From contig JASFHL010000009.1 of assembly GCA_050123235.1 (NCBI GenBank), forward strand, positions 1 to 52,479: a stretch of 52,479 nt of DNA. Direction: 5' to 3'. A program made the position numbers and the translations under genes. The stretch's first letter is position 1, and every line of letters begins with the position of its first letter. Positions 1 through 28,155 of this stretch are shown piece after piece. The notes below the pieces were generated by a model, which was not told the DNA's origin, made no database searches, and was given only the letters and a program-made list of their open reading frames with translations. Source of the DNA: Candidatus Woesebacteria bacterium. Lineage in GTDB: Bacteria > Patescibacteriota > Microgenomatia > UBA1400 > PJMF01.

Positions 1-2
1 AA

Positions 3-551
3 AGTTTCCTCAGGATGTAGGATTCCTAAAGTATCTGGTAGCATAAAACGTTTTATTTTTTCATTTTTTAGCCCATTTACTAAAAAAAATAGATAATCAG
101 GAGAATTTTTAATTCCATTGGACCAATCTTCTAAGTAAAGGTTAACTTTCATTTGAAATTGTTTAGCTTTATTAATTGTTTTTTTAATATCATCTAAATG
201 CCGCTGTGGAGTTTTTCTAAGTTGTACAGAAACATGTTTGAGTGAACCTTTACAAAGAAGATTCACAACTCTTCCTCCAGCCTGTTTGATCCATTGAAGT
301 GATTTACCGTCATCAATAAAAGCTAAAATTTCTATTTTTTCTAAATGATTATTTTTTTTAGCCCAATTAGTAATTTTTTTAACAGCTTCAAATTCTCCTT
401 TAGATACTCTGGCAGAAGCCACTTCAATTCGATCGACTAAAACTTCCTCTATTAGCATTTTAGCAATTAATAGTTTGTCTTCATGGTTAAAAGTAACTCC
501 AGCTGTTTGTTCACCATCTCTGAGAGTGGTATCCATAATGCTAATTTTCAT
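3..551 (-). CDS. cimA: (R)-citramalate synthase-like DRE-TIM enzyme (LeuA/CimA family); runs off the left window edge
   Basis: Not in the ORF track; translated by hand from ATG at 551: MKISIMDTTLRDGEQTAGVTF...DRIEVASARVSKGE...YLEDWSNG...MLPDTLGIL. DTTLRDGEQ is the LeuA/CimA motif. EVASARVS and YLEDWSNG resemble Leptospira/Bacteroidetes-type CimA. SD AAAGGA upstream. Confidence 0.75.
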   Translation of the reverse strand, partial: MKISIMDTTLRDGEQTAGVTFNHEDKLLIAKMLIEEVLVDRIEVASARVSKGEFEAVKKITNWAKKNNHLEKIEILAFIDDGKSLQWIKQAGGRVVNLLCKGSLKHVSVQLRKTPQRHLDDIKKTINKAKQFQMKVNLYLEDWSNGIKNSPDYLFFLVNGLKNEKIKRFMLPDTLGILHPEET

Positions 552-567
552 TTTTTCCTTTCTAAAT

Positions 568-595
568 AAAAAAATCTCCCTTAAGGGAGATTTTT
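568..595 (-). terminator. Attenuator terminator upstream of cimA
   Basis: Minus strand AAAAATCTCCC-TTAA-GGGAGATTTTTTT: perfect hairpin ending in a U7 tract, 16 nt before the cimA ATG. Confidence 0.85.
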
Positions 596-616
596 AAACT
601 ACAATATTAAATCCCC

Positions 617-670
617 CTATGTAGAGAGAGTAATAATAATGCTATTGAAAGTTTTTAAACTTTTGTTCAT
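617..670 (-). CDS. Ile-rich attenuation leader peptide MNKSLKTFNSIIITLST
   Basis: ATG(670)..TAG(617) with three tandem ATT codons. Lies between a consensus promoter and an antiterminator/terminator pair. Confidence 0.8.
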   Translation of the reverse strand: MNKSLKTFNSIIITLST

Positions 671-698
671 TTTTGATTTTTATTTTAGATGAGTAGTA

Positions 699-727
699 AT
701 TATATAACTTAAGAGAAATGCTGTCAA
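699..727 (-). promoter_or_regulatory. sigma70 promoter for the leader-cimA transcript
   Basis: Perfect TTGACA-17 nt-TATAAT on the minus strand. Confidence 0.85.
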
Positions 728-745
728 AGAAAATTTTTCTATAAG

Positions 746-1489
746 TTAAACTATCAGTTCATAATTCTGACATTTTTTTACTAATTCCTTAAATACTTGG
801 CTAGTAATTGTTTGATCTTTATCAACCAATTCTTCTTCCGGATTATAGTGAGTCTCCACTACTAAACCATCTGCTCCTGCTGCAATGGCTGACAAAGCTA
901 AATGAGGAACCATATCTCTTCTGCCAGCAGTGTGCGAAGGATCAACAATGACTGGCATTTTGTGATCATGTTTAACTACTAACATAGCATTTAAATCTAA
1001 AGTAAAACGCATTGCATCTGCTCCAGTTCTAATACCTCTTTCACATAAAATAACTTTATCTTTACCGATGTATTCCGCAGCTCCTAACCATTCTTTAACT
1101 GTAGCTATTAAGCCTCGTTTTAAAATGACAGGCCTTGGATCATCTTTCATCCTTTTGAGTAGTTCATAATTTTGCATGTTTCTAGCTCCTACCCATAAAA
1201 TATCAGCAACATCCTCTACAATTCCTATTTGATCTGGAGCTACCATTTCCATTACAACAGGCAAGCCAGTTTTTTCTTTTAATTCTTTGATCCAAGGAAT
1301 GCCTTTTTTTCCAACTCCCTGAAACGAATCAGGTTTGGTTCTTGGTTTCCAAAGTTGAGCACGAATAGCATGAGCTCCTGCTTTTTTAACTTCTTTAGCA
1401 ATACGTAAAATTTGTTCTCTTGAGGCAACAGAGCAAGGCCCACCAATAATTAAAGGTTTATTTTTTAATAGTCTTTTTCTGCTTAGCAT
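746..1489 (-). CDS. aroF: DAHP synthase type I-beta, catalytic barrel only
   Basis: GPCSV, KPRT, GARNMQN, LKRG, CERGIRT, DPSH and GADGL motifs. KPRT rather than KANRS indicates DAH7PS, not KDO8PS. 247 aa, no ACT or chorismate mutase extension. Confidence 0.9.
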   Translation of the reverse strand: MLSRKRLLKNKPLIIGGPCSVASREQILRIAKEVKKAGAHAIRAQLWKPRTKPDSFQGVGKKGIPWIKELKEKTGLPVVMEMVAPDQIGIVEDVADILWVGARNMQNYELLKRMKDDPRPVILKRGLIATVKEWLGAAEYIGKDKVILCERGIRTGADAMRFTLDLNAMLVVKHDHKMPVIVDPSHTAGRRDMVPHLALSAIAAGADGLVVETHYNPEEELVDKDQTITSQVFKELVKKCQNYELIV

Positions 1490-1525
1490 AATGATTTCCT
1501 TTTTTGATTTAATTAATTGAAGTTT

Positions 1526-2452
1526 TTAATTTTTCAAATTTAAATCTTTTAAATTTATTTTTTTAGTACAAGCTTTTTTCATAAATTGATAAATTTCTTT
1601 TTTATAAGGAATAGCTGTACCATTACCTGTTTTTCTACATTGCATGGCAGCTACTAAATTAGCAAAGTTAATAATTTTTTCCTCATTCCATTTGTTCAAA
1701 ACACCAAATCCGTAAGCACCACGGAAAACATCTCCTGCTCCAAGAGTATCAACTACATCGACTTGGTAGGCTGGATAAAAATTAGTTTTTTTGCCGTTAT
1801 AACTCAAACTGCCTAATCCTCCAGCTGTGACAATAATTGTTTTTTGAGCGATTTGTTGTAATTGTTTTAGATTATCCAATTGACTAAGTTTGTTGTTGTA
1901 TTTTTTTAAACTTTCAATTGGAATGATAGGATGTTCTGCTTTTTGGAGCATACTTAATGTCTTGCTTGAAATTTCAGTAGAAGGATCGATTACAATTGGC
2001 GTTGTTATTTTTTTCTTTTTTAAAATTTCTTGAAAAGCGATTGGTTCATGTCTATCAATAATAATTAAATCAATAGTTCTAATTAATGATGAACTAAGGT
2101 TTTTAGTGGGTCTATGTTTAATTCGGTCTTTAATAATTGTGCGCGAACCTGTTTTGCGATTGACTAAGACAGTATTAGTTTTAGTTTTAGCTTGTTGATT
2201 AATAATTAATTTAATATTTTCTTTTTTTAATTTCTTCTTGATGACTTTAGCTGTGTCATCATTGCCTAAAGAACAGATTAAAGTACATTGCACACCTAGT
2301 CGCGCTAATAAAATTAAAGCTGCTGGTACAGGGCCACCAACTGAATAAGAAGTTTGTGAAGCTTGTGTTTTTTCTCCGTCTTTTGGATAGTGCTTGATGA
2401 TATTGCTTTTGTCTAAAACGACTTCACCAATACCAAGTACTTTCATTTTCAT
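1526..2452 (-). CDS. PfkB/ribokinase-family carbohydrate kinase
   Basis: GGPVPAALILLARLG and VVDTLGAGDVFRG signatures. Start moved to ATG 2452 (AGGAGG 10 nt upstream), because the track's 2488 start runs through the attenuator. Confidence 0.88.
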   Translation of the reverse strand: MKMKVLGIGEVVLDKSNIIKHYPKDGEKTQASQTSYSVGGPVPAALILLARLGVQCTLICSLGNDDTAKVIKKKLKKENIKLIINQQAKTKTNTVLVNRKTGSRTIIKDRIKHRPTKNLSSSLIRTIDLIIIDRHEPIAFQEILKKKKITTPIVIDPSTEISSKTLSMLQKAEHPIIPIESLKKYNNKLSQLDNLKQLQQIAQKTIIVTAGGLGSLSYNGKKTNFYPAYQVDVVDTLGAGDVFRGAYGFGVLNKWNEEKIINFANLVAAMQCRKTGNGTAIPYKKEIYQFMKKACTKKINLKDLNLKN

Positions 2453-2455
2453 AAT

Positions 2456-2480
2456 AAAAAAACCTCCTAGTAGGAGGTTT
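2456..2480 (-). terminator. Attenuator terminator that also sequesters the PfkB Shine-Dalgarno
   Basis: Minus strand AAACCTCCT-ACT-AGGAGGTTTTTTT. The 3' arm is the AGGAGG SD. Confidence 0.85.
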
Positions 2481-2506
2481 GTCTGCATTCTGGTTTTATT
2501 TTCTTA

Positions 2507-2581
2507 TTACAACAAAGACCTCCTTTTATTTAGGAAGTAAAAGTAAAAGAAATACCAGTTACTTGTTTTGTATGTATTCAT
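2507..2581 (-). CDS. Aromatic-rich leader peptide MNTYKTSNWYFFYFYFLNKRRSLL
   Basis: ATG(2581)..TAA(2507) with eight consecutive aromatic codons (TGG TAT TTC TTT TAC TTT TAC TTC). Confidence 0.88.
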   Translation of the reverse strand: MNTYKTSNWYFFYFYFLNKRRSLL

Positions 2582-2590
2582 TAAGTATAG

Positions 2591-2619
2591 ATTATAAATA
2601 TGCAATTATACTTTTGCAA
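2591..2619 (-). promoter_or_regulatory. Putative sigma70 promoter for the aromatic leader
   Basis: TTGCAA-17 nt-TATAAT, overlapping the ridA 3' end, 9 nt before the leader ATG. Confidence 0.65.
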
Positions 2620-2980
2620 TAGCCACTGCCTCAATTTCGATCTTAGCTCCTTTTGGTAATTCTGCTACCGCAACAGTAGATCGAGCTGGTTTATGTCCTT
2701 GCAAAAATTTTCCATAAATTTCATTAACAATAGCATAATCATTAACGTTAATTAAAAAAATCGTTGTCTTAATCACATCTTTGACAGTTACTCCAGCAGC
2801 CTTTAAAACATTGGCTAAGTTTTCCAGAGCCTTTTGGCACTGTGCTTCTACTGCTTCATCAACGAGATCCCCATTTGTATCAATGCCAATCTGGCCAGAA
2901 GTAAAAATAAATTTATCTACTTTAATAGCCGGTGAATAAGGACCAACAGCTTTACTATTTTTGGGATTAATAATTTGCAT
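2606..2980 (-). CDS. ridA: RidA-family enamine/imine deaminase
   Basis: GPYSPA, FTSGQI, PARSTV and LPKGAKIEIEA motifs. Confidence 0.9.
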   Translation of the reverse strand: MQIINPKNSKAVGPYSPAIKVDKFIFTSGQIGIDTNGDLVDEAVEAQCQKALENLANVLKAAGVTVKDVIKTTIFLINVNDYAIVNEIYGKFLQGHKPARSTVAVAELPKGAKIEIEAVAIAKV

Positions 2981-2986
2981 ATTTAA

Positions 2987-3340
2987 TTACTTACTGACTT
3001 TATCAACGATTTTCTTGAAAGTCGCCTCATCACTGACAGCTAATTCTGCAAGCATTTTTCTGTTAAGCATGATTTTAGCTTTTTTGAGTTGATTGATAAA
3101 TCTTGAATATTGAAGTTTTTCATCAATTGTTTTTAAAGCAGCATTAATTCTAATAATCCAGAGTTTTCTCATATCTCTTTTTCTCAGTTTTCTACCAATA
3201 TAAGCATATTGCCCAGCATGTAGTACTGCTTCATGGGCTCTCTTAAATAATCTACTATTAGTCCCACGATAACCTTTAGCTAGTTTTAAAATTTTTTTGT
3301 GTTTACGTCGTCTGACGACTCCAGTTTTTGCTCTAGACAT
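2987..3340 (-). CDS. rplT: 50S ribosomal protein L20
   Basis: MSRAKTG..AKGYRG, RKLWIIRINAA, LNRKMLAELA; operon context. Confidence 0.97.
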   Translation of the reverse strand: MSRAKTGVVRRRKHKKILKLAKGYRGTNSRLFKRAHEAVLHAGQYAYIGRKLRKRDMRKLWIIRINAALKTIDEKLQYSRFINQLKKAKIMLNRKMLAELAVSDEATFKKIVDKVSK

Positions 3341-5044: not shown

Positions 5045-6004
5045 TTATAATTTAAATAAATGATCCATTGTTTTTTGTCTTTTAACAATATATTTCAAAT
5101 AAGACTGATATGAGGCATTTTTTTTCATTTTCTCCCTCAAGATTTTATCCTGAATTTTTTCTAAATATTTTTTAATATCTTCTTTAGTAGCGCTTATTTT
5201 TTCTTCTAAAGTAATTTTATTTAAAATAAAATCAAGTTGTAATTTGCCTAAAGAACTAGCTGTGAGTTGTTGTGATAGTTGTTCAAAGCTTAATTTTTGT
5301 GATTTAAGATAATCTTCCAGTCTCAATTTCATTCTTGAGAGATTATTAACTAGTTTCTCTAGTTCTCTTTGAGTTTCTTCTTCAACTAATAATTGAGGAA
5401 TGCTAGGCTTAATTTCAGTAATTAGTTCTTTGAAAATGAATTGCAAAATACTGTCTTTTTTTTGAGTGTCAGTCAGTTTTTGAGCTGTTTTAAATTGAGC
5501 TTTACTATCTGTTTTCTTATTGGCTTTCTTGCTTTGTTTTTTTATCTGTGCTTCTGCTTCTTTGATATGCTTTTCTGCCTGTTTTTTAGCTGTTTTGATG
5601 ATTTTTTTAAAATTTTTAAGATCTATCTCAGGTGCTTCAGCGAAATGTGCTTCTATTTTCCAGTCTTCACCAATTTTGATTTGAATTGGCCTAAATTTTG
5701 GCTGGCTCAATGGCTTTTTCTTATCTTTTTTAATAGCGTTGGTATATAAATCAGGTAATAAACTTTGTAGAGTTTTATTGATAAGTTTAGATTGACCAAT
5801 GATTTCTTCAGCAATTTTTTTGGGAACGCGTCCTTTTCTAAAGCCAGCTGTTTTAACATTTTTGGATAATCTTTTCAAAACTCTGTGATATTCCTCGCTT
5901 GCTTTTTTAGCAGGAATAGTAAGAGTGATGATGCTATTTGGAGCAATCAAAGCTTTTTCCTGTTTTTTATCTGCTTTTGTTTTAGTGTTTGTTTTTTTGC
6001 TCAT
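5045..6004 (-). CDS. tig: Trigger factor lacking the central PPIase domain
   Basis: GFRKGRVP ribosome-binding motif and C-terminal helical domain, joined by a Lys-rich linker in place of FKBP. ATG 6004 chosen (TATAAT 7 nt upstream). Confidence 0.85.
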   Translation of the reverse strand: MSKKTNTKTKADKKQEKALIAPNSIITLTIPAKKASEEYHRVLKRLSKNVKTAGFRKGRVPKKIAEEIIGQSKLINKTLQSLLPDLYTNAIKKDKKKPLSQPKFRPIQIKIGEDWKIEAHFAEAPEIDLKNFKKIIKTAKKQAEKHIKEAEAQIKKQSKKANKKTDSKAQFKTAQKLTDTQKKDSILQFIFKELITEIKPSIPQLLVEEETQRELEKLVNNLSRMKLRLEDYLKSQKLSFEQLSQQLTASSLGKLQLDFILNKITLEEKISATKEDIKKYLEKIQDKILREKMKKNASYQSYLKYIVKRQKTMDHLFKL

Positions 6005-6019
6005 CACCAAGATTATAAC

Positions 6020-28019: not shown

Positions 28020-28081
28020 AAATCAAGAGAAAATTGTTTTTTTGGTAGAGATAAAATATTACATTCTTGAAGTTTTTTCTG

Positions 28082-28155
28082 TGGGTGATCATGGAGTCGA
28101 ACCATGGACCTCAGTCTTATCAGGACTGCGCTCTAACCATCTGAGCTAATCACCC
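28082..28155 (-). tRNA. tRNA-Ile(GAT), CCA not encoded
   Basis: GGGTGAT/ATCACCC acceptor, CAGTC-CTGATAA-GACTG anticodon arm. Confidence 0.95.

Follow-up and report, generated by a model that had tools for sequence, protein, structure and literature searches.

A candidate isoleucine-specific leader-peptide attenuator upstream of the citramalate synthase gene cimA in a Candidatus Woesebacteria genome

The cimA gene and its leader region

The window, which is the whole stretch of 52,479 nucleotides (nt) of Candidatus Woesebacteria DNA analysed here, begins on its minus strand with the 5' part of a citramalate synthase gene (cimA), preceded by a leader at 568..727 which very probably is a genuine isoleucine-specific, ribosome-mediated (leader-peptide) transcription attenuator. 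The original prediction for this site named a perfect TTGACA-17-TATAAT promoter, a leader with three ATT codons, a segment with two possible partners and a terminator with seven U residues, and all of these elements are present on the minus strand, as listed here in window coordinates and in the order of transcription.

722-727, minus strand: -35 hexamer TTGACA, matching the consensus
699-704, minus strand: -10 hexamer TATAAT, matching the consensus, with a 17-nt spacer to TTGACA
617-670, minus strand: leader open reading frame (ORF) MNKSLKTFNSIIITLST, 17 codons and TAG (ATG 670-668, TAG 619-617), read from the sequence
632-640, minus strand: ATT ATT ATT within this ORF, the proposed Ile sensing codons
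623-629, minus strand: segment 1, TCTCTCT, the last sense codons of the leader, forming the 1:2 hairpin
609-618, minus strand: segment 2, AGGGGGATTT, 5' arm of the antiterminator, which begins within the stop codon and pairs with segment 1 or 3
584-593, minus strand: segment 3, AAATCTCCCT, common to the antiterminator (2:3 pairing) and the 5' arm of the terminator (595-585)
568-580, minus strand: segment 4, 3' arm of the terminator (580-570) and U-run (574-568), giving a hairpin with a T-run
1-551, minus strand: N-terminal 183 codons of cimA, identified by profile and structure matches, running off the contig end

The promoter (727-699) agrees with the consensus at 12/12 positions and is the sole such match in the first 3 kb, while the whole 1.134-Mb genome contains eight perfect promoters with a spacer of 16-18 nt, compared with about three expected from base composition; another of these eight heads the leader of the ilvB operon described below. 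The transcript would start near 692, about 22 nt before the leader ATG at 670. The triplet ATT makes up 64.5% of the Ile codons in the long ORFs of the genome, and a tRNA-Ile(GAU) gene is located at window positions 28081-28155. Fully intergenic, ATG-started ORFs of 8-40 codons number 1008 genome-wide, and only four contain three consecutive isoleucines (III), with the cimA leader being the sole one combined with a terminator, a promoter and an amino-acid gene behind it; the other three (on contigs C1, C3 and C7) have neither a terminator nor a relevant gene and were rejected as leaders. Between the end of the leader ORF and the cimA start are 66 nt, which include the full terminator, and the cimA ATG at 551 has its own Shine-Dalgarno motif (AAGGA, 560-556). 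Because no promoter fits between the terminator and this ATG, cimA can only be expressed by read-through.

The window start is the end of its contig (G000:C9:1), and cimA continues with 214 codons on the plus strand of another contig of the same genome (G000:C15:1-645). The two halves span positions 7-188 and 193-388 of the 514 positions of the hidden Markov model (HMM), with residue 1 of the C15 part at position 189, and from these adjoining positions the two contig ends are predicted to abut in frame, giving a CimA of about 397 amino acids in total. Among sequencing runs, a single DNA run and no RNA run was found to contain this DNA; the DNA run may be the one from which the assembly was made, and its contig stops at the same point as the window and provides no bridge between C9 and C15. 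The view that the gene is CimA-like rather than LeuA-like agrees with the profile and structure scores, and a separate true leuA is present elsewhere in the genome. The Leptospira-type CimA model NF042433 of NCBIfam is the best model for both halves when scored separately (240.8 and 235.9 bits, the curated cut-off of 950 bits being out of reach with separate halves and with the ~126 last model positions absent), whereas on the N-terminal 183 residues no LeuA model exceeds 87 bits. Similarly, the structure of the Leptospira interrogans citramalate synthase (LiCMS, 3BLE) was matched at 207 bits versus 45-48 bits for LeuA or homocitrate synthase. In the 3BLE alignment (chain numbering offset 12), the residues aligned to LiCMS Leu81, Leu104 and Tyr144 are all identical, and these we take to be pyruvate-pocket residues; Ma et al. 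are said to have reported in 2008 that they shape the pyruvate pocket of LiCMS. A role of cimA in aromatic metabolism, considered for its position between aro and phe genes, was rejected on the active site, the HMM matches and the Ile leader.

Alternative pairings and the proposed mechanism

Three helices can be formed by the four segments, with the following stabilities when folded alone. Helix 1:2 pairs 629-623 with 618-612 (7 base pairs (bp), -6.7 kcal/mol), helix 2:3 pairs 618-609 with 593-584 (10 bp including one G-U, -11.2 kcal/mol), and helix 3:4, the terminator, extends from 595 to 570 (11 bp, loop TTAA, -13.6 kcal/mol), with its 3' arm running into seven T (574-568). The terminator hairpin is placed 15 nt beyond AGGGGGATTT and its U-run ends 17 nt ahead of the cimA ATG. 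Since segment 3 belongs to the 5' arm of the terminator, the 2:3 and 3:4 pairings are mutually exclusive, and in the full RNA the 1:2 helix is lengthened by the Ile codons, which pair with 608-601. The whole leader folds with a z-score of -3.3, and none of 200 shuffled sequences folded as well.

For folding in the presence of a ribosome, the masked footprint began 15 nt 5' of the codon in the A site and extended through its 13th nt. When any of the three Ile codons occupies the A site, nascent RNA that reaches as far as the terminator loop is predicted to fold as 2:3. When the stop codon occupies it, the footprint hides segment 2, the 2:3 pairing is impossible and the complete RNA forms the terminator. 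Both the alternative partners that the original prediction gave to segment 2 (upstream with its CTCTCT part, or with the 5' arm of the terminator) and its 1:2, 2:3 and 3:4 layout are borne out by these helices, and the masked nascent folds fit the geometry of the ribosome.

In the proposed mechanism, transcription would start from the consensus promoter and a ribosome would translate the 17-codon leader ahead of monocistronic cimA. If charged tRNA-Ile is plentiful, the ribosome would reach the TAG and place its footprint over segment 2 (618-609), leaving segments 3 and 4 to pair, and with this hairpin and the U7 tract formed the transcript would end 17 nt ahead of cimA. If charged tRNA-Ile is scarce, the ribosome would stall at ATT ATT ATT (640-632) and cover segment 1 and the extended 1:2 helix, so that segment 2 stays free and would capture segment 3 on its emergence, before segment 4 exists; no terminator would then form and the polymerase would enter cimA. 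We infer that the leader is translated, that its translation is coupled to transcription and that the switch responds to isoleucine. If true, this implies tight coupling of transcription and translation in bacteria of the candidate phyla radiation (CPR), and a working switch would also mean initiation of translation without a Shine-Dalgarno motif in a lineage not yet grown alone.

The mechanism itself is classical, and what is new is the target gene cimA, the Ile-only specificity and the phylum. Branched-chain leader attenuators of enterobacteria include ilvL (ilvGMEDA), ivbL (ilvBN), leuL and thrL, the last with Thr and Ile codons. They share with the cimA leader the promoter, the ORF with codons for the end product, the 1:2, 2:3 and 3:4 pairings, and the terminator before the first gene, but control ilv, leu and thr genes and not citramalate synthase, and while the cimA leader is Ile-only, ilvL and ivbL are multivalent and thrL is mixed. 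The cimA leader also differs from the enterobacterial ones in its lack of a Shine-Dalgarno motif, its three regulatory codons, its host in the CPR (Patescibacteria) and the absence of an Rfam family at gathering score. Outside the Proteobacteria, two publications describe attenuation by leader peptides for branched-chain amino acid (BCAA) genes, namely the ilvBNC leader peptide of Corynebacterium glutamicum (PMC11857589) and the Leu-rich attenuator peptide of ilv-leu in Staphylococcus aureus (PMC5794164). As described there, these resemble the cimA leader in their three-hairpin model, but control other genes, are not Ile-specific and have no sequence similarity to it. A full-text literature search found no published description of an attenuator before cimA, with none in the main text of PMC3223726, and no leader-peptide attenuation tied to Patescibacteria was found among the literature matches listed.

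Related leaders in this genome and in other genomes

We scanned the genome for small ORFs that contain an amino-acid run, have a hairpin and T-run behind them and lie within 150 nt of a long ORF, and also read candidate regions directly. In each of the following leaders, which have a promoter and/or a terminator, the codon run corresponds to the amino acid that the following gene serves.

G000:C5 ~84148-84330 (region 84148-84408): ilvB operon leader MLKINSQNQFNNVLVIILSLST, run VLVIIL, with a perfect promoter
G000:C5:78040-78269: leader MQINKFKNNQLLLILTIP of the leuA operon (leuA-leuC-leuD-leuB), run LLLIL
G000:C15:619-799: prephenate dehydratase (pheA) leader MTNHKTNNNFFFFFFNSSLKEVVGI, run FFFFFF (six Phe codons), ORF 656-733, terminator 757-777
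Window 2581-2507 (ORF; region 2581-2453), minus strand: leader MNTYKTSNWYFFYFYFLNKRRSLL of a sugar-kinase-like gene and DAHP synthase, run WYFFYFYF
G000:C1:13452-13582: leuS leader MKIKTLSLLLLVS, run LSLLLL, with a terminator
G000:C1:46720-46977: thrS leader ...ITTTTTSSK, run TTTTT, with a terminator
G000:C7:33888-34128: trpS leader ...NSWWSSLS, run WW, with a terminator

The identities of leuS, thrS and trpS were assigned by NCBIfam, with the three loci listed respectively. About 25 further hits of the scan had no match between run and gene, and as they mostly have TTG or GTG starts or overlap with real genes, they are regarded as probable noise.

The leader of the ilvB operon is the only conserved counterpart of the cimA leader that was found. 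The two have a mean column identity of 76%, and in both the leader ORF ends with ...LST followed by the stop codon and GGGGGATTT; their terminator stems differ by a single exchange of U-A to G-C, so that the structure-forming parts are kept. They have the same type of perfect promoter, ORF ending and terminator design, but the ilvB leader carries 4 extra nt within its 2:3 region, differs by one compensated base pair in the terminator, and controls ilvB-ilvN-ilvD-aminotransferase-ilvC and a ThrC-like fusion gene, whereas the cimA leader precedes cimA. Their codon runs differ as well, with VLVIIL preceding ilvB, the enzyme for all three amino acids, versus III preceding the Ile-only enzyme. A profile built from both leaders recovers the two copies at E values of 6e-23 and 5e-28, and its next hits are non-significant (E 0.03-2), these being mainly the leuA, thrS, trpS, leuS, pheA and aro leaders, together with the reverse strand of the cimA terminator and two unrelated sites. 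By this similarity the cimA and ilvB leaders are paralogues, and as such they offer a view of how attenuator specificity evolves, with one RNA scaffold carrying the codon runs that the target enzymes predict. In the masked-fold test, some stall positions also replaced the terminator by the antiterminator in the ilvB, leuA, leuS and thrS leaders.

The aromatic leader of the sugar-kinase-like gene has its terminator at window 2480-2460, with a pfkB-family sugar-kinase-like gene and DAHP synthase downstream. Its Rfam match to Phe_leader reaches 43.5 bits with an E value of 2.9e-5 (gathering score 55), and it folds with a z-score of -3.0. The kinase start probably is ATG 2452 rather than the ATG 2488 of the ORF finder, because the latter falls inside the attenuator. 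Just upstream of this leader is a gene of the RidA / L-PSP family (Pfam PF01042, window 2606-2980, minus strand); enzymes of this family quench the reactive enamines made by threonine dehydratase. The pheA leader ORF starts 11 nt past the cimA stop (C15:645) and is followed by genes for prephenate dehydratase, pheS and pheT. As a TATAAT overlaps the cimA stop codon and the pheA leader ORF starts about 2 nt after the predicted transcript start, translation of this leader may use a nearly or fully leaderless mRNA. Upstream of a cysteine synthase gene, a terminator-like hairpin accompanies the small ORF MFNQQQLNLLSSLCCTSYIKGRFICHN (G000:C2:146546-146698), a possible Cys-sensing leader in view of its three Cys codons, of which two are adjacent. 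The ileS leader (G000:C2:25660-25960, minus strand of C2) is about 290 nt long and includes a strong terminator and a stretch resembling a T-box core by eye, with no Rfam match including T-box at E up to 1 and no small ORF with an Ile run.

Leaders of this kind were also found in related genomes. A Leu-rich small ORF with a terminator-like site precedes leuS in 8/14 loci of the same family and in 0/4 loci of the same order, a count which leaves out 11 loci with partial matches or no N-terminus. For ilvB, 20 other loci of the phylum were examined (one of them cut at its end), of which 2-3 have a small ORF rich in Ile, Leu and Val with a terminator-like site and two more have the ORF only; the small ORFs upstream of these ilvB homologues (loci L211, L213, L208, L216 and L227) include MKIIVNNVLLLVNLVLTR and MHRSSIVAIVVVTSL. 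These loci suggest that leader peptides of BCAA genes are sporadically distributed across Patescibacteria and that aminoacyl-tRNA synthetase genes are under leader-peptide control in this CPR family, and from the leuS and ilvB loci the leader-peptide device appears to be native to the lineage.

Alternative explanations and the isoleucine pathway

Several results weigh against leader-peptide attenuation at cimA. With the ribosome on the Ile codons, the equilibrium still favours the terminator over the antiterminator by about 2.5 kcal/mol (-15.3 versus -12.8 kcal/mol). When the 5' untranslated region is left off, the whole-leader fold has the terminator in its minimum-energy structure at all three stall positions, and the antiterminator appears in the minimum-energy fold only with this region included. 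Nascent RNA without a ribosome is also predicted to fold as 2:3, which means that thermodynamics alone does not predict termination in the absence of translation, and the pheA and trpS leaders gave no predicted switch in the masked-fold test. The regulatory codons number just three, inspection of the A-rich, unstructured region ahead of ATG 670 found no Shine-Dalgarno motif, the chief structural peculiarity of the element and one that the sister leaders of the genome share, and in Rfam the best match of the cimA leader is Phe_leader (RF01859), with 31.6 bits versus a gathering score of 55 (E = 0.013). As to conservation, no stand-alone cimA orthologue was present in 60 relatives, and the single CimA-bearing genome among 400 sampled members of the phylum has cimA abutting leuC. 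No orthologous leader was found: the LeuA-like gene of one relative and the CimA gene of one phylum member both abut the upstream gene, and of the 80 best public-genome loci most have cimA behind a leuD-sized gene on the same strand, without a leader. Recurrent peptides such as MILII or TILII upstream of homologues were rejected as leaders because they are out-of-frame readings of the conserved leuD C-terminus, and six loci with stand-alone homologues and long upstream gaps contained no Ile leader; in metagenome contigs the 80 best loci were at most 69% identical, with no near relative. With the terminator remaining more stable at equilibrium, the switch must be kinetic. The choice made by the trp attenuator is likewise kinetic, and in the enterobacterial branched-chain leaders the terminator also outweighs the antiterminator, as in the cimA leader.

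The hairpin could instead separate cimA from the upstream kinase/DAHP-synthase operon as an insulator or as a constitutive, leaky terminator, with a fortuitous ORF containing III, as the genome is AT-rich with ATT as commonest Ile codon, the palindromic hairpin is flanked by A and T runs like a two-way terminator, and there is neither a Shine-Dalgarno motif for the leader ORF nor an orthologous leader showing conservation. We consider this improbable, as the hairpin is downstream of the 12/12 promoter, whereas a terminator of the upstream operon would precede the next promoter, and a chance ORF does not sit easily with the rarity of III in intergenic small ORFs (4/1008, one alone with a terminator), with a segment 2 that pairs with both neighbours where the ribosome geometry demands, or with the 76%-identical paralogue at ilvB, in which the codon run is changed to fit the gene. 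About equally unlikely is a real switch set by an RNA-binding protein, uncharged tRNA or a small ligand rather than by a translating ribosome: the leader is just ~120 nt long, no T-box, riboswitch or protein-binding leader was matched in Rfam at E up to 10 (window 1-3000, save generic leader and terminator look-alikes), and the correspondence between run and gene over at least eight leaders of the genome fits a ribosome as sensor and not a protein or ligand. Still, the alternative helices would suit any such effector, the lack of a Shine-Dalgarno motif points the same way, and the structured ileS leader, with its terminator and without a leader-peptide signature, indicates that other RNA mechanisms may exist. 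PMC4833913 proposes that leader genes may also act outside attenuation, and the C-terminal half of the 17-residue peptide is hydrophobic, so that the small ORF could encode a functional peptide or boost translation or mRNA stability, its Ile run having no sensing role; with the full terminator in the 66 nt between this ORF and cimA, and with the cimA and ilvB leader peptides not conserved save where the RNA structure is, this is the least probable of the three and very doubtful.

The complete pyruvate route to isoleucine, which is independent of threonine and has cimA as its first gene, is predicted from the gene content of the genome (1.13 Mb, 98.5% complete, translation table 11). The original prediction proposed to look for leuBCD and ilv genes left of the window; they are not there, where the contig ends, but leuC, leuD, leuB, ilvB, ilvN, ilvD, an aminotransferase gene and ilvC are all present on contig C5. 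The same contig carries the true leuA (G000:C5:78269-79447, 392 amino acids), which scores 610 bits and thus above cut-off, and the last gene of its ilv cluster encodes a ThrC-like pyridoxal phosphate enzyme fused to a LeuA_dimer domain (606 amino acids, C5:90651-92471, by Pfam). The same prediction described the lineage as one regarded as auxotrophic, which agrees with our survey: a CimA/LeuA-type gene was found in 1/60 relatives (genomes of 0.7-1.5 Mb), CimA in 1/400 and an ilvB homologue in 24/400 sampled members of the phylum, and a passage in PMC13707452 describes Patescibacteria as typically without amino-acid biosynthesis. Amino-acid synthesis is a capacity that CPR bacteria are generally said to lack, and this genome encodes a complete and apparently regulated route to isoleucine.

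Contamination of the contig was rejected on its 16S rRNA gene and the ordinary housekeeping genes which the window carries, and from these the contig is taken to be native to the genome. The 16S rRNA gene is 84-86% identical to its four best full-length matches of the same family, 79-82% identical to other family members and 76-81% to genomes of the same order. The closest CimA sequences are 60-69% identical and come from records mostly labelled Bacteroidota, with few labelled otherwise, which points to acquisition of cimA by gene transfer.

Pfam searches of the C-terminal half of CimA found only HMGL-like and HCS_D2, with no LeuA_dimer domain, and the ORF stops at C15:645. In contrast, all 77 complete homologues, which were taken from the 80 best public-genome loci (the other three being cut by the locus end) and are mostly labelled Bacteroidota with few from other phyla, have 503-569 amino acids and the regulatory domain. 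LiCMS (PDB 3BLE/3BLF/3BLI) has a similar catalytic domain but also a C-terminal regulatory region, where CimA here ends near residue 397. A passage in PMC7826400 states that the C-terminal region of LiCMS mediates isoleucine feedback, and that in related enzymes without the regulatory region the feedback inhibition is gone. Because CimA has no C-terminal isoleucine-binding domain, the RNA switch probably is the main end-product control at the entry of the pyruvate route to isoleucine, and RNA-level feedback appears to replace the lost allosteric domain. LeuA (392 amino acids) likewise has no LeuA_dimer regulatory domain. We tentatively extend this to a wider scenario, in which end-product control of a BCAA pathway acquired by this ultra-small CPR bacterium moved from protein to RNA: CimA and LeuA would both have lost their allosteric domains, cimA, leuA and ilvB would each have gained a codon-tuned related attenuator, the Ile-only cimA leader would stem from a duplicated and recoded ilvB leader, and the same lineage-native device, which works without a Shine-Dalgarno motif, would also gauge tRNA charging for leuS, thrS and trpS.

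Elsewhere in the window, a trigger factor gene (5045-6010, minus strand) encodes a protein of 321 amino acids with the N- and C-terminal domains and no FKBP/PPIase domain. Its nearest clusters in the ESM Atlas contain similarly short proteins and lend weak support to a CPR placement of the genome, most of them being of CPR origin (ranks 1 and 3 by features), with the cluster at rank 2 being commonest in Pseudomonadota.

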